IMG/VR virus record: IMGVR_UViG_2579778899_000001
Coordinates: 1-5,541 of that record
Length of the DNA: 5,541 bases
Source: a virus
Lineage: Duplodnaviria > Heunggongvirae > Uroviricota > Caudoviricetes
Direction: 5' to 3' (one strand)
In this document: positions 2 through 5,541 of the stretch, in pieces
How the letters are laid out: each line of letters starts with the position of its first letter
How positions within the stretch are numbered: the first letter of the stretch is position 1
Position numbers and translations under genes: made by a program
The notes under the pieces: generated by a model
The model's database searches: none
What the model saw: the letters and a program-made list of their open reading frames with translations, nothing else
What the model was told of the DNA's origin: nothing

Positions 2-154
2 ATCAGCCTGATGCTGACCGAGCGAACGCTGGTCAGTGAGGTGGACGGCGCACTGCATGTGAAGAATATCCCGGAACCCCCGCCGCCGGAGCCGGTCACC
101 CGCCCGATGGAGCTTTATATCAATGGCGAACTGGTGAGCAAGTGGGATGAATGA
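2..154 (+). CDS. 3' end of a tail completion protein gene (gpR-like), 5'-truncated by the window edge
   Basis: Frame 2 is open from the window start to TGA at 152-154 (…PEPPPPEPVTRPMELYINGELVSKWDE*). High-GC codon usage matches the downstream structural genes. Its stop overlaps the start of the next gene (ATGAATGA), as expected for coupled late genes. Assignment to gpR rests on synteny with P2 (R precedes S), not on recognised sequence. Confidence 0.5.
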   Translation: MSLMLTERTLVSEVDGALHVKNIPEPPPPEPVTRPMELYINGELVSKWDE

Positions 155-599
155 GTTTAAGCGTTTTGAAGACCGGCTGACCGGACTGATTGAGTCGCTG
201 TCACCGTCAGGGCGTCGGCGGCTGAGTGCAGAGCTGGCGAAGCGTCTGCGGCAGAGTCAGCAGCGTCGGGTGATGGCACAGAAAGCCCCGGACGGCACAC
301 CCTACGCGCCACGCCAGCAGCAGAGCGCCAGAAAAAAGACCGGTCGTGTTAAGCGAAAAATGTTTGCGAAACTTATCACCAGTCGTTTTTTGCATATCCG
401 CGCCAGCCCGGAACAGGCATCAATGGAATTTTACGGCGGGAAGTCGCCGAAAATCGCCAGTGTGCATCAGTTCGGTCTGTCGGAAGAAACCCGGAAAGAC
501 GGTAAGAAAATTGATTATCCGGCGCGTCCTCTGCTCAGCTTTACCGGTGAGGATGTGCAGATGATTGAAGAGATTATCCTGACTCACCTTGAGCGTTAG
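147..599 (+). CDS. S: tail completion / virion morphogenesis protein gpS
   Basis: 150-aa ORF, the size I recall for P2 gpS. The basic N-terminal region (RRRLSAELAKRLRQSQQRRV) and overall sequence look like the P2 gpS family. The start overlaps the upstream stop by 8 nt. GC-rich coding composition. Confidence 0.8.
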   Translation: MNEFKRFEDRLTGLIESLSPSGRRRLSAELAKRLRQSQQRRVMAQKAPDGTPYAPRQQQSARKKTGRVKRKMFAKLITSRFLHIRASPEQASMEFYGGKSPKIASVHQFGLSEETRKDGKKIDYPARPLLSFTGEDVQMIEEIILTHLER

Positions 600-629
600 T
601 TTTATCCAGGCAGAGGCTGATGCGCAATT

Positions 630-664
630 AAACATTGAGCGGCCATGCTGGTCGCTCAATGTTT
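630..664. terminator. Perfect inverted repeat (12-bp stem AAACATTGAGCG / CGCTCAATGTTT, 11-nt loop) between convergent genes; candidate bidirectional terminator
   Basis: Read directly: 630-641 is the exact reverse complement of 653-664. It lies 31 nt past the gpS stop and 7 nt past the minus-strand cargo gene stop. T-runs follow on both strands (TTTAATT on minus, TTTATGAGTGATTTTTATTT on plus), but neither is a clean U-tract. Confidence 0.4.
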
Positions 665-670
665 AGAGGT

Positions 671-1456
671 TTATGAGTGATTTTTATTTGATGCTTTGTA
701 TTCTAAAACCTTCTTATTGGCGTAAAAGAATTTTGTATATGACAGGAATATAACCAGACCTGAAGTGAAATAGACGAGGGATAGTATTAATAATGCTTTT
801 TTGTGACTGTTATTATCTTTAATCTCCTGGCTTAACCATTCGGAGTCCTCCTCGTTTAGCTGTAAGAGCTTATTGCAGGCGATCTCAGGAAGTGTGTCTT
901 TTATAAATACGTTTTGCAGTCTCTTGCAATCGGCAAGGCTATAAGTTTTATTAAATTCAACTGCTTTATTTTTGAAGGATAAAAGAACTTTGTCACTATA
1001 AACATAGTACATCATGTTTTTATATGGTATGCCTATGGCATCCCTTACTATAACGGATTGTTCGTTGTGTATGTAACATGCGAGGAGAATGTAAAAAATA
1101 CTGGCCAGAATTACAATTATTGTTTTAATTATGTGTGGTGGTTTTGTTATGTCACCCCAGATGCGAGTAAGGAAAAAATACGATGTTTTTAGTTTTCCAT
1201 CAATCAGTCCCTGCTGTATCATTCTCACATTTTCAATGCCTGATACATTGATTCCATTAATTATTTTAAATAGTTGAATGTCGCGCCACTTGCGGTCAAG
1301 TCTTTTTAATTTTTTGTCTGAATATCCAAAATTGAAATAATGTGCAATAAGCCTCATAAGGTTACTTTTACCAAAGCTAAAAAATGCTAATACTGCAAAG
1401 CTACAAAGGAAAAAAACGATTAGCCCCCACACATTAGTCACATTATAGCTGACCAT
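671..1456 (-). CDS. hypothetical 261-aa integral membrane protein on an AT-rich cargo island in the S-V intergenic position (orf30-like position of P2); function unknown
   Basis: Uninterrupted 786-nt ORF filling the whole AT-rich island. Strong SD (AAGGAG) about 6 nt upstream of the ATG at 1456 on the minus strand. AT-biased codons with K/N/I/F/Y-rich protein. Three hydrophobic segments of about 20 aa (residues ~9-28, ~108-129, ~221-240; nt ~1373-1432, ~1070-1135, ~737-796) separated by Lys/Arg-rich loops. No catalytic motif recognised. Confidence 0.8.
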   Translation of the reverse strand: MVSYNVTNVWGLIVFFLCSFAVLAFFSFGKSNLMRLIAHYFNFGYSDKKLKRLDRKWRDIQLFKIINGINVSGIENVRMIQQGLIDGKLKTSYFFLTRIWGDITKPPHIIKTIIVILASIFYILLACYIHNEQSVIVRDAIGIPYKNMMYYVYSDKVLLSFKNKAVEFNKTYSLADCKRLQNVFIKDTLPEIACNKLLQLNEEDSEWLSQEIKDNNSHKKALLILSLVYFTSGLVIFLSYTKFFYANKKVLEYKASNKNHS

Positions 1457-1539
1457 TACGCTCTCCTTGAATGTTGTCTGGTAGTTCTACAAATGAATCC
1501 AGATAGCATAACTTTTATATATTGTGCAATCTCACATGC
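1457..1539. promoter_or_regulatory. 83-bp divergent control region between the cargo gene (-) and gpV (+); contains the cargo gene RBS and presumably the late tail-operon promoter (P_V equivalent)
   Basis: Cargo RBS (CTCCTT on plus = AAGGAG on minus) at 1462-1467. Candidate -10 TATATT at 1518-1523 on the plus strand upstream of the V ATG at 1540, with no good -35, as typical for activator-dependent late promoters. Imperfect TGT…ACA dyad at 1472-1491 (spacing 14 or 11, not the N12 I recall for Ogr-type sites). Minus-strand TTGCAC (-35-like, plus coordinates 1523-1528) could serve the cargo gene. All calls are by eye. Confidence 0.3.
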
Positions 1540-2181
1540 ATGAACACTCTCGCAAATATTCAGGAACTCGCGCGCGCACTGCGCAACATGATTCGCACCG
1601 GCATTATCGTCGAAACCGACCTTAACGCCGGTCGCTGCCGTGTGCAGACCGGCGGCATGTGCACTGACTGGCTTCAGTGGCTGACCCATCGTGCCGGTCG
1701 TTCGCGCACATGGTGGGCACCTTCCGTGGGGGAGCAGGTGCTGATTCTGGCCGTGGGCGGTGAACTCGACACGGCGTTCGTTCTGCCGGGGATTTATTCC
1801 GGCGATAACCCCGCGCCGTCTGCGTCGGCGGATGCCCTGCATATCCGTTTCCCTGACGGGGCGGTGATTGAATATGAACCCGAAACCAGTGCACTCACGG
1901 TAAGCGGAATTAAAACAGCCAGCGTGACGGCTTCTGATTCTGTTACTGCCACGGTGCCGGTGGTCATGGTGAAAGCATCAACCCGCGTCACCCTGGACAC
2001 ACCGGAGGTGGTCTGCACCAACAGGCTGATTACCGGCACGCTGGAAGTGCAGAAGGGCGGGAAGATGCACGGCAACATCGAGCATACCGACGGGAAATTC
2101 ACTTCTAACGGCGTTCAGGTGGATGACCACGGTCACGGTGGTGTTAAGTCAGGTGACAACTGGACGCAGGGGACAAAATGA
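1540..2181 (+). CDS. V: baseplate central spike protein gpV
   Basis: The ORF track opens at a TTG at 1522; the first ATG is at 1540 (MNTLANIQELARAL…), giving 213 aa, close to the ~211 aa I recall for P2 gpV. His-rich C-terminal apex (…HGNIEHTDG…DDHGHGG…) is typical of spike tips. The stop overlaps the W start (ATGA). Confidence 0.8.
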   Translation: MNTLANIQELARALRNMIRTGIIVETDLNAGRCRVQTGGMCTDWLQWLTHRAGRSRTWWAPSVGEQVLILAVGGELDTAFVLPGIYSGDNPAPSASADALHIRFPDGAVIEYEPETSALTVSGIKTASVTASDSVTATVPVVMVKASTRVTLDTPEVVCTNRLITGTLEVQKGGKMHGNIEHTDGKFTSNGVQVDDHGHGGVKSGDNWTQGTK

Positions 2182-2525
2182 CAGCGCGTTATCTCGGAAT
2201 GAATCGCAGTGATGGCCTGACTGTCACTGACCTTGAGCATATCAGCCAGAGTATCGGCGATATCCTGCGCACGCCGGTCGGCTCACGGGTGATGCGTCGT
2301 GATTACGGCTCGTTGCTGGCGTCAATGATTGACCAGCCGCAGACCCCGGCGCTTGAGTTGCAGATTAAGGTCGCCTGTTACATGGCGGTGCTGAAATGGG
2401 AACCCCGCGTCACCCTGTCATCCGTTACCACGGCGCGCAGCTTTGACGGGCGAATGACGGTCACGTTAACCGGCCAGCACAACGACACCGGCCAGCCACT
2501 TTCATTAACCATCCCTGTGAGTTGA
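2178..2525 (+). CDS. W: baseplate wedge protein gpW (T4 gp25-like)
   Basis: 115 aa, the size I recall for P2 gpW. SD AGGGGA 4 nt upstream of the ATG. Position immediately after V and before J. Sequence looks like the GPW/gp25 family. Confidence 0.8.
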   Translation: MTARYLGMNRSDGLTVTDLEHISQSIGDILRTPVGSRVMRRDYGSLLASMIDQPQTPALELQIKVACYMAVLKWEPRVTLSSVTTARSFDGRMTVTLTGQHNDTGQPLSLTIPVS

Positions 2526-2529
2526 AACC

Positions 2530-3438
2530 ATGCCGATTATCGACCTGAACCAGCTACCCGCACCGGATGTGGTCGAGGAGCTGGACTTTGAAACCATTCT
2601 TGCCGAACGCAAGGCGACACTGATTTCCCTTTACCCGGAAGACCAGCAGGAGGCGGTCGCCCGTACCCTGACGCTGGAATCCGAGCCTCTCGTCAAACTG
2701 CTGGAGGAAAATGCGTATCGCGAGCTTATCTGGCGTCAGCGTGTGAATGAGGCTGCACGGGCGGTGATGCTGGCCTGTGCAGCCGGTAATGACCTTGATG
2801 TGATTGGTGCCAATTACAACACCACGCGCCTGACTATCACCCCGGCAGATGATTCGACTATCCCGCCGACACCGGCAGTGATGGAGTCTGACACCGATTA
2901 TCGTCTGCGTATTCAGCAGGCGTTTGAAGGCTTAAGCGTCGCCGGGTCGGTGGGAGCCTATCAGTATCATGGTCGCAGTGCCGACGGGCGTGTCGCGGAT
3001 ATCTCTGTCACCAGTCCGTCTCCGGCCTGTGTCACCATCTCTGTGCTGTCACGTGAAAATAACGGTGTGGCATCTGAAGACCTGCTGGCTGTGGTGCGCA
3101 ACGCCCTGAATGGCGAGGACGTCAGACCGGTGGCCGACCGTGTGACCGTGCAGTCTGCCGCCATCGTTGAATACCAGATAAATGCCATGCTTTACCTTTA
3201 CCCTGGCCCCAAAAGCGAGCCCATTCGCGCTGCCGCCGTGAAAAAACTGGAAGCGTATATCACGGCACAGCACCGGCTGGGGCGCGACATCCGACTGTCT
3301 GCCATTTATGCCGCTTTGCATGTGGAAGGCGTGCAGCGTGTCGAACTGGCTGCACCGCTGGCCGACATCGTGCTCAACAGTACGCAGGCGTCTTTCTGTA
3401 CCGAATACCGCGTCGTGACCGGAGGCTCGGATGAGTGA
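2530..3438 (+). CDS. J: baseplate assembly protein gpJ (T4 gp6-like)
   Basis: 302 aa, the size I recall for P2 gpJ. Starts 4 nt after the W stop. Its stop overlaps the I start (ATGAGTGA). Confidence 0.8.
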   Translation: MPIIDLNQLPAPDVVEELDFETILAERKATLISLYPEDQQEAVARTLTLESEPLVKLLEENAYRELIWRQRVNEAARAVMLACAAGNDLDVIGANYNTTRLTITPADDSTIPPTPAVMESDTDYRLRIQQAFEGLSVAGSVGAYQYHGRSADGRVADISVTSPSPACVTISVLSRENNGVASEDLLAVVRNALNGEDVRPVADRVTVQSAAIVEYQINAMLYLYPGPKSEPIRAAAVKKLEAYITAQHRLGRDIRLSAIYAALHVEGVQRVELAAPLADIVLNSTQASFCTEYRVVTGGSDE

Positions 3439-3961
3439 TTCGCGCCTGCTGCCGACCGGCTCATCACCGCTTGAAGTCGCCGCTGCAAAAGCCTGTGCGG
3501 AAATTGAAAAAACGCCGGTCAGTATTCGTGAGCTGTGGAACCCGGACACCTGCCCGGCAAATCTGCTGCCGTGGCTGGCGTGGGCGTTTTCGGTCGACAG
3601 ATGGGATGAAAAGTGGCCGGAAGCGACCAAACGCGCCGTTATTCGCGATGCCTATTTCATCCACTGTCATAAAGGCACTATAGGTGCAATCCGGCGTGTG
3701 GTGGAGCCGCTGGGCTATCTCATCAACGTGACGGAGTGGTGGGAAACCAGTGACCCGCCCGGCACCTTCCGGCTTGATATTGGTGTACTGGAAAGCGGTA
3801 TCACAGAGGCAATGTATCAGGAAATGGAACGGCTGATTGCTGATGCCAAACCTGCAAGCCGCCACCTTATTGGCCTGAACATTACCCGGGACATTCCCGG
3901 CTACCTGTTCGTCGGTGGTGTGGCTTATGACGGCGATGTAATTACGGTTTACCCCGGATAA
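3431..3961 (+). CDS. I: baseplate/tail protein gpI
   Basis: 176 aa, the size I recall for P2 gpI. Start overlaps the J stop by 8 nt. Conserved position between J and the tail-fibre gene. Confidence 0.8.
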   Translation: MSDSRLLPTGSSPLEVAAAKACAEIEKTPVSIRELWNPDTCPANLLPWLAWAFSVDRWDEKWPEATKRAVIRDAYFIHCHKGTIGAIRRVVEPLGYLINVTEWWETSDPPGTFRLDIGVLESGITEAMYQEMERLIADAKPASRHLIGLNITRDIPGYLFVGGVAYDGDVITVYPG

Positions 3962-3971
3962 GTGAGGAATA

Positions 3972-5531
3972 ATGAGCACAAAATTCAAAACCGTTATCAC
4001 CACTGCCGGTGCAGCAAAGCTGGCAGCGGCAACCGCACCGGGAGGGCGGAAGGTCAACATTACCACGATGGCCGTCGGGGATGGCGGTGGTAAATTGCCT
4101 GTCCCGGATGCCGGACAGACCGGGCTTATCCACGAAGTCTGGCGACATGCGCTGAACAAAATCAGCCAGGACAAACGAAACAGTAATTATATTATCGCAG
4201 AGCTGGTTATTCCGCCGGAGGTGGGCGGTTTCTGGATGCGTGAACTTGGCCTGTACGATGATGCGGGAACGCTAATTGCCGTGGCGAACATGGCCGAAAG
4301 TTATAAGCCAGCCCTTGCCGAAGGCTCAGGGCGTTCGCAGACCTGCCGCATGGTCATCATCGTCAGCAGTGTGGCCTCAGTGGAGCTGACCATTGACACC
4401 ACAACGGTGATGGCAACGCAGGATTACGTTGATGACAAAATTGCAGAACATGAACAGTCACGACGTCACCCTGACGCCTCGCTGACCGCAAAAGGTTTTA
4501 CTCAGTTAAGCAGTGCGACCAACAGCACGTCTGAAACACTGGCCGCAACGCCGAAAGCGGTAAAGGCCGCGTATGACCTTGCTAACGGGAAATATACCGC
4601 ACAGGACGCCACCATAGCGCGAAAAGGCCTTGTCCAGCTCAGTAGTGCGACCAACAGCACGTCTGAAACGCTCGCCGCAACACCAAAAGCCGTTAAGACG
4701 GTAATGGATGAAACGAACAAGAAAGCGCCATTAAACAGCCCTGCACTGACCGGAACGCCAACGACGCCAACTGCGCGACAGGGAACGAATAATACTCAGA
4801 TCGCAAACACGGCTTTCGTTATGGCCGCGATTGCCGCCCTTGTAGACTCGTCGCCTGACGCACTGAATACGCTGAACGAGCTGGCGGCGGCGCTGGGCAA
4901 TGACCCGAATTTTGCTACCACCATGACTAATGCGCTTGCGGGTAAGCAACCGAAAGATGCCACTTTGACGGCGCTGGCGGGGCTTGCTACTGCGGCAGAC
5001 AGGTTTCCGTATTTTACGGGGAATGATGTTGCCAGCCTGGCGACCCTGACAAAAGTCGGGCGGGATATTCTGGCTAAATCGACCGTTGCCGCCGTTATCG
5101 AATATCTCGGTTTACAGGAAACGGTAAACCGAGCCGGGAACGCCGTGCAAAAAAATGGCGATACCTTGTCCGGTGGACTTACTTTTGAAAACGACTCAAT
5201 CCTTGCCTGGATTCGAAATACTGACTGGGCGAAGATTGGATTTAAAAATGATGCCGATGGTGACACTGATTCATACATGTGGTTTGAAACGGGGGATAAC
5301 GGCAATGAATATTTCAAATGGAGAAGTCGCCAGAGCACCACAACAAAAGACCTGATGAATCTTAAATGGGATGCTCTGTATGTTCTTGTTAAAGCCCTTT
5401 TCAGCAGTGAAGTAAAAATATCTACAGTCAATGCGCTGAGGATATTTAATTCATCTTTTGGTGCTATTTTTCGCCGTTTGCGTATTTTCATGAAAGGAGA
5501 TCACTCAATAACTTCCATCGAGATCGGGTAA
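3972..5531 (+). CDS. H: tail fibre protein gpH-like (519 aa), with a compositionally distinct low-GC C-terminal portion
   Basis: SD GAGGA upstream of the ATG at 3972. Two copies of the tail-fibre repeat motif QLSSATNSTSETLAATPKAVK. Ala/Thr/Asn-rich shaft-like sequence. A conserved-looking block (WAKIGFKNDADGDTDSYMWFETGDNGNEYFKW) is followed by an AT-rich terminal segment. Shorter than the ~669 aa I recall for P2 H. Confidence 0.75.
   Translation: MSTKFKTVITTAGAAKLAAATAPGGRKVNITTMAVGDGGGKLPVPDAGQTGLIHEVWRHALNKISQDKRNSNYIIAELVIPPEVGGFWMRELGLYDDAGTLIAVANMAESYKPALAEGSGRSQTCRMVIIVSSVASVELTIDTTTVMATQDYVDDKIAEHEQSRRHPDASLTAKGFTQLSSATNSTSETLAATPKAVKAAYDLANGKYTAQDATIARKGLVQLSSATNSTSETLAATPKAVKTVMDETNKKAPLNSPALTGTPTTPTARQGTNNTQIANTAFVMAAIAALVDSSPDALNTLNELAAALGNDPNFATTMTNALAGKQPKDATLTALAGLATAADRFPYFTGNDVASLATLTKVGRDILAKSTVAAVIEYLGLQETVNRAGNAVQKNGDTLSGGLTFENDSILAWIRNTDWAKIGFKNDADGDTDSYMWFETGDNGNEYFKWRSRQSTTTKDLMNLKWDALYVLVKALFSSEVKISTVNALRIFNSSFGAIFRRLRIFMKGDHSITSIEIG
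4505..4697 (+). repeat. Imperfect direct repeat (about 60 nt per copy, 132-nt period) inside the tail-fibre gene, encoding two identical 19-aa fibre-repeat motifs
   Basis: Copies at ~4505-4565 and ~4637-4697 (AGTGCGACCAACAGCACGTCTGAAAC…). Amino-acid sequence is identical (SSATNSTSETLAATPKAVK), with mostly synonymous nucleotide differences. Confidence 0.7.
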
Positions 5532-5541
5532 TAACATTTGA

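Follow-up and report, generated by a model that had tools for sequence, protein, structure and literature searches.

What does the pair of histidines near the end of gene V reveal about the spike that this prophage encodes, and about the tail to which that spike belongs? The window analyzed here, that is, the whole stretch of 5,541 nucleotides, is part of a P2-like prophage of Escherichia coli, with 96.6% identity to phage P2 over positions 2-5396. Its first 5,478 positions are 100% identical to uninterrupted prophages in six complete E. coli chromosomes, including that of strain GN02461, in which the prophage is located between pflA and pflB. A sequence-only reading had proposed that the histidines at the spike tip coordinate a metal (iron) ion as in P2 gpV, and that this speaks for an intact membrane-piercing spike in a functional rather than decayed tail module. 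The genes and regulatory elements needed to address these proposals are the following; unless indicated otherwise, they were placed by means of the open reading frame (ORF) list, domain matches and P2 annotation.

147-599, + strand: gene S
671-1456, - strand: orf30
1471-1498, + strand: equivalent of the activator binding site of the P2 late promoter PV (from P2 misc_feature 1670-1697, offset 199)
1540-2181, + strand: gene V, baseplate central spike, gpV homologue of 213 aa plus a TGA stop codon at 2179-2181 (from the ORF list and homology)
2178-2181, + strand: ATGA overlap of the V stop and W start codons (from the sequence and the ORF list)
2178-2525, + strand: gene W
2530-3438, + strand: gene J
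3431-3961, + strand: gene I
3972-5478, + strand: tail-fibre gene H, truncated after codon 502 (identity to intact prophages stops at 5478)

The gene order S, orf30 (opposite strand), V, W, J, I, H is collinear with that of P2, with V downstream of S and at the head of the V-W-J-I-H baseplate/fibre operon. None of the genes S, V, W, J, and I is truncated according to the ORF list. The ATGA overlap between V and W is annotated likewise in P2, 899, 186, and PSP3, and translational coupling of the two genes is predicted to be retained through it. Positions 1401-1500 show zero mismatches to P2, so the PV-equivalent region is identical. In the 5.5 kb of prophage examined, the overlapping V and W have no PAAR-like ORF between them.

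Gene V lies within a + strand ORF spanning 1522-2181, and its start was set at the ATG at 1540 by identity to P2 gpV. Its product aligns without gaps with the solved P2 gpV (PDB 3QR8) over residues 1-206 (E 3.5e-121) and scores 246 bits against the NCBIfam model TIGR01644 phage_P2_V, for which the cut-off is 46.75. At the nucleotide level, V is 100% identical to the RefSeq coding sequence WP_001093709.1, annotated as "phage baseplate assembly protein V." Judged by this homology, V is an intact, full-length member of the P2 gpV family. Its domain matches, both of which exceed the Pfam gathering thresholds, and the limits transferred from P2 divide the protein as follows.

1594-1797, + strand: N-terminal OB-fold domain, aa 19-86 (Pfam PF04717 Phage_base_V, E 3.2e-20)
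1951-2109, + strand: intertwined triple beta-helix, aa 138-190 (Pfam PF18715 Phage_spike, E 2e-27, full profile 1-53)
2110-2178, + strand: apex domain, aa 191-213, equivalent to P2 gpV residues 191-211 (alignments, with the P2 limits from bioRxiv 10.1101/2023.02.25.529910)
2128-2136, + strand: HxH motif H197-G198-H199, predicted iron ligands (positional identity with P2 H197/H199; His in 67 of 69 homologues at each column)

Two minus-strand ORFs in the same region, 1794-2102 and 1978-2136, were set aside; both fall within the strongly conserved coding gene V.

Direct reading of the codons bears out the DDHGHGG tip exactly as it had been described. Val194 is encoded by GTG at 2119-2121, and Asp195 and Asp196 by 2122-2127; these are followed by H197 (CAC, 2128-2130), G198 (GGT, 2131-2133), H199 (CAC, 2134-2136), and G200 and G201 (2137-2142). 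In the gapless alignment with 3QR8, H197 and H199 fall on H197 and H199 of P2 gpV, which are the ligands of the P2 metal site. The anticipated correspondence between the tip histidines and the metal-coordinating positions of a solved spike was thus found. The V protein has six histidines in all, at positions 50, 101, 177, 182, 197, and 199. The further histidines upstream of the motif to which the sequence-only reading alluded do exist as H177 (codon 2068-2070) and H182 (codon 2083-2085), but they lie outside the segment 2119-2181 given for that reading, do not belong to the cage, and are poorly conserved, with His in 7 of 71 and 31 of 68 diverse homologues, respectively. Because H177 and H182 are not conserved, "His-rich" is an overstatement, and the functional unit is the two-residue HxH. 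We considered H177/H182 as a second metal site and rejected it on account of this low conservation and of the lack of any role assigned to these residues in the literature consulted.

Conservation of the motif was assessed in two sets of homologues. All 80 homologous loci from IMG/VR, representing 29 distinct C-termini, carry HxH at the same place. A more diverse set was drawn from the best 150 matches among 1.84 billion cluster representatives; 69 of these align through the apex, at pairwise identities of at most 50%, and His occupies column 197 in 67 of the 69 and column 199 in 67 of the 69. The residue between both histidines varies freely (K, Q, T, V, D, G, and others), and the only other near-invariant apex columns in this set are G191, G201, and G205. 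One exception, protein P0019, has Tyr for His and Ile for Thr along its whole C-terminus, and its lack of HxH may reflect a sequence error. In these proteins, the last 25 residues contain HxH at a density about 67 times that found elsewhere (105 of 3,450 positions, versus 12 of 26,607). The first His is placed 17 residues from the C-terminus in 48 of the 91 proteins with a C-terminal HxH, the window's included, which makes this the commonest position; the P2 length class, with the first His 15 residues from the end, comprises 17 proteins and is less common family-wide. These counts bear on the simplest alternative, namely, that both histidines are a chance pair in a tail containing Gly and His, with no specific role. 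Only the shortness of the motif speaks for it. Against it, the histidines align position for position with the P2 ligands, are 97% conserved per column at no more than 50% overall identity while neighboring columns vary, occur in all 80 homologues, and have persisted through an exchange of the apex DNA after which only 36% nucleotide identity remains. We therefore consider the chance reading refuted and its residual probability negligible.

In P2, the apex comprises residues 191-211, and it is through the OB-fold that the spike is seated on the hub and tube (Miller et al., bioRxiv 10.1101/2023.02.25.529910). In the gpV trimer, His197 and His199 of the three chains, related by symmetry, enclose a buried iron ion in an octahedral cage of six histidines (bioRxiv 10.1101/2023.02.25.529910), and the same iron site has been seen in the P2 virion (2026 cryo-EM preprint). 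gpV is reported to reach the periplasm (PMC12407873). With high confidence, we interpret positions 2128-2136 as the HxH of a P2-family spike apex, predicted to bind metal (iron in P2) and carried on a recombined apex of the 186/PSP3 type. That the window's protein trimerizes, binds a metal, in particular iron, and serves in piercing is deduced by analogy with the P2 work. Under this analogy, the protein would form a trimer. Its N-terminal OB-fold would attach to the hub and tube, and an intertwined beta-helix would lead to a small conical apex, where the three HxH copies would put six imidazoles around one buried metal ion (iron in P2) in octahedral arrangement. Such a metal cage would keep the tip folded, narrow, and stiff; sheath contraction would then drive the spike through the outer membrane, much like a drill bit, and the spike would be released into the periplasm. 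The window's spike is accordingly a predicted member of the iron-loaded HxH-apex class (the class of Browning et al. 2012, as described by Miller et al.), and its sequence displays His at both ligand positions of the class, conserved across homologues around a variable middle residue.

A different metal (Zn, Ni, or Co) might occupy the cage, or the cage might stay empty in the 186-type apex, in which case HxH would serve as a register for the chains and not harden the tip. The metal cannot be told from sequence; moreover, HxH cages in fibres are thought to serve as folding registers, and a core with Phe in place of His yields a wild-type phenotype (bioRxiv 10.1101/2023.02.25.529910). Yet iron has been found in every case reported in the literature consulted (P2 gpV and the differing His3Cys site of T4 gp5.4), and the ligand set and its spacing in the window are identical to those of P2. 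We regard this alternative as improbable and favor an iron-binding cage.

How much function can be read from the cage is limited by the genetics of P2 itself. Phages in which the cage was destroyed (H197A/H199A) or replaced by Phe (H197F/H199F), or in which the apex was deleted, still infect in the laboratory, and only the mutant with an unfolded apex plates less well, at an approximately two-fold lower efficiency (bioRxiv 10.1101/2023.02.25.529910). Since the P2 cage and apex are dispensable in the laboratory, an intact HxH is weak evidence of function. It identifies the kind of spike and does not certify that the spike works, and "required for piercing" would overstate its role. The earlier proposal of an intact membrane-piercing spike therefore holds as regards an intact, full-length V, but not as regards the weight it placed on the histidines as a sign of function. 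The HxH feature is also already known, because an identical protein is annotated in RefSeq and both the structure and the genetics of the motif have been published. Its practical value would be that of a reliable marker of a fused spike tip for which no PAAR protein should be needed.

Comparison with known spikes places the window's protein closest to P2 gpV (structures 3QR8, 3QR7, and 3AQJ; apex mutants 8VOL, 8VOM, and 8VON), to which it is 90% identical over the whole protein and about 97% identical as far as residue 171. Both share the three-part architecture, the positions of H197 and H199, the V-W ATGA overlap, and the neighbors S, orf30, W, J, I, and H. The apex differs: it reads VQVDDHGHGGVKSGDNWTQGTK in the window and KVLHTHKHPGDSGGTTGSPL in P2, P2 H195 (not a ligand) is Asp in the window, the distance from the first His to the C-terminus is 17 residues instead of 15, and the window has a Trp near the tip, unlike P2. 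The window's apex type, DxHGHGGVxxGxxWTxxTK, is shared with the Eganvirus phages 186 (Orf32) and PSP3 (orf15) and with 899 and GMG73. Among other solved spikes, a C-terminal HxH followed by a Gly-rich tip, as in the window, is found in Mu gp45 (3VTN, 3VTO, and 9KI1), phi92 gp138 (3PQH and 3PQI), OBP gp146 (6P2A), and the gp41 puncturing protein (4RU3), and 9ZD7 gp86 (...FHTHKHGGVMPGGGVTAVPQ) has both the post-motif length of the window and an HxHGGV..G core. Outside the apex, the similarity of the 9ZD7, Mu, phi92, OBP, and 4RU3 spikes to the window's is distant or undetectable, and their lengths and upstream domains differ. The PAAR-repeat tips (T4 gp5.4 and the PAAR proteins of type VI secretion systems, T6SS) do a like job, each being a sharp metal-stabilized cone on a trimeric beta-helical spike. 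However, they are separate monomeric proteins with a tetrahedral His3Cys site, whereas the window's tip is fused to the spike, would be built of three chains, and has a predicted octahedral six-His site.

The difference from P2 is confined to one end of the gene. Within 2001-2200, the window has 57 differences from P2, with 0 to 5 per 100 nt on either side, and the divergence starts at about 2055 and stops at 2177, the last base ahead of the W start codon, leaving a patch of about 125 nt between flanks that are 96-99% P2. This patch and the identities to the window of its core and of the adjoining W gene are given below.

2055-2177, + strand: sharply bounded patch divergent from P2, apex cassette of the 186/PSP3 type (mismatch map)
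Apex core, 2111-2177 (67 nt), identity to the window: P2 36%, phage 899 97%, 186 72%, PSP3 76%
W gene, identity to the window: P2 98.6%, phage 899 97.1%, 186 65.5%, PSP3 68.7%

The last 142 nt are 98.6% identical between the window and two phages deposited with complete genomes, Escherichia phage 899 and Yersinia phage GMG73; for 186 and PSP3 the figure is 72-75%. At the protein level, two discrete apex types can be distinguished, a P2 type, KVLHTHKHPGDSGGTTG[SG]PL, and a 186 type, VQVDxH[GD]HGxVxxGxxWTxGTK; the window's allele, HGHGGVKSGDNWTQGTK, belongs to the 186/PSP3 type, and that of P2 is two residues shorter. G191, H197, H199, G201, G205, and T209 are invariant across the apices of the window, P2, 899, 186, and PSP3. 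The spike body of 186 and PSP3 has only 60-79% DNA identity to the window, and their W 66-69%. Because the body and W of 186/PSP3 diverge while the window is P2-like there, V of the window is best described as a mosaic, in which a 186-type apex was apparently recombined onto a P2-type body, with a putative recombination boundary at the V/W junction.

The 33-aa apex peptide by itself retrieved one insignificant and unrelated match from the PDB, where sequence searching turned up no structure of the 186-type apex. Because the apex peptide alone is thus unmatched, the correspondence between the 186-type and P2 apices rests on the flanking alignment together with G191, H197, H199, G201, and G205. 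A profile of the 17-residue apex class, in turn, matched spike apices only; the best PDB match was the gp86 tail tip 9ZD7 (E 8.8e-11, at its last residues), and the others were P2 gpV, Mu gp45, phi92 gp138, OBP gp146, and 4RU3 gp41.

A match to the 3' end of V is present in 1,599 of 5,426 complete E. coli genomes, and in 202 of these it extends through the apex, i.e., these genomes carry a 186-type allele, about 90 of them at an identity of at least 90%. The 186-type apex is a minority allele in E. coli, since only 202 of the 1,599 V-matching genomes have one. The sharply bounded exchange of P2-type and 186-type cassettes is the one mildly new observation made here. We tentatively suggest, as a speculative reading with rather low odds, that the last ~125 nt of V are an exchangeable apex cassette with two deeply diverged alleles (HTHKHPGDSGG... 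and HGHGGVxxGxxWT...) on P2-type E. coli spikes that are otherwise 96-98% identical, perhaps under selection; alternatively, the exchange could reflect neutral mosaicism. If selection keeps both tips, e.g., in response to differing outer-membrane or LPS chemistries, the apex would help to determine how efficiently the phage infects in nature, though dispensable in the laboratory. A role of the apex in natural infection has been raised as a possibility, without a test (bioRxiv 10.1101/2023.02.25.529910). Through the apex mosaicism, two natural alleles are available on near-identical spike bodies, with which an effect of tip chemistry on the infection of different hosts could be tested.

The state of the tail as a whole is decided at the other end of the window, where the last feature begins.

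5479-5541, + strand: left end of the IS21-family element ISEc12, beginning TGCGTATTTTCATG... (multicopy match, next to istA/istB)

From position 5479 (TGCGTATTTTCATGAAAGG...), the sequence belongs to a multicopy element present in 2,827 E. coli genomes. Positions 5479-5541 are identical at 63 of 63 positions to the IS end in NZ_CP054161, and this sequence lies directly upstream of the annotated istA/istB of ISEc12. Base-by-base mapping of the junction places the cut in gene H at 5478/5479, after codon 502; the intact allele is 2,046 nt long and encodes 681 aa, so that the C-terminal 179 residues are lost from the frame, and the 519-aa H ORF of the window ends in IS-encoded residues. The exact H-ISEc12 junction is absent from the 5,426 complete E. 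coli genomes. The tail module is hence not intact, with H broken by ISEc12 while the spike gene V is intact, and the claim of a functional rather than decayed module fails within the very stretch from which it was drawn. HxH is no marker of a working tail.

The spike could thus be intact but idle, in a prophage that is decaying and has kept HxH only because the IS insertion is recent. H is essential in P2, and it is listed there with the V operon members V, W, J, I, H, and G; the insertion removes 179 of 681 residues from its frame, and the 100% identity to six uninterrupted prophages outside the IS fits a very recent event. On the other hand, S, V, W, J, and I are full-length and the PV-equivalent region is identical to that of P2, the window does not extend to the 3' part of H or to the remainder of the prophage, and IS insertions can be lost. 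On balance, we consider an idle spike fairly probable, and the spike of the window may never be used, H being broken by ISEc12. Such idleness bears on whether the module works and not on the identity of the motif, for which the reading as a P2-family, metal-binding HxH apex is retained.

Some further features of the locus were recorded. A second, independent ISEc12 insertion interrupts H of another P2-like prophage (NZ_CP170378.1, 3480-3640) in the same orientation, 20 bp downstream of the site in the window, and two such nearby insertions may indicate a local target preference of ISEc12. Ahead of the insertion, the 3' part of H (5301-5478) diverges sharply from P2, with 14 differences in 5301-5400, after which the alignment is lost; its matches are instead to phage P2_AC1 and a number of E. 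coli prophages, which is the usual C-terminal mosaicism of tail fibres. Farther upstream in H, at 4520-4720, the translation contains a direct repeat of a peptide segment, with ...LSSATNSTSETLAATPKAVK... occurring twice.

The orf30 homologue, on the opposite strand between S and V, encodes 261 aa with hydrophobic segments at its N- and C-terminal ends and forms an AT-rich island (33-36% GC, versus ~58% in the flanks). It is near-identical to P2 (4 mismatches over 601-1500) and nonessential according to the P2 annotation; searches of its product yielded no Pfam match, no PADLOC match, and only PHROG 2407, of unknown function. Outside the window, a sister uninterrupted prophage (NZ_CP095533.1) carries defence-type genes at both P2 cargo sites (7153-11391 and 26812-29443), with a DUF7380 protein and the reverse transcriptase and effector of retron Ec48 at one of them and a Lit-family exclusion protein and a DUF2634 protein at the other.
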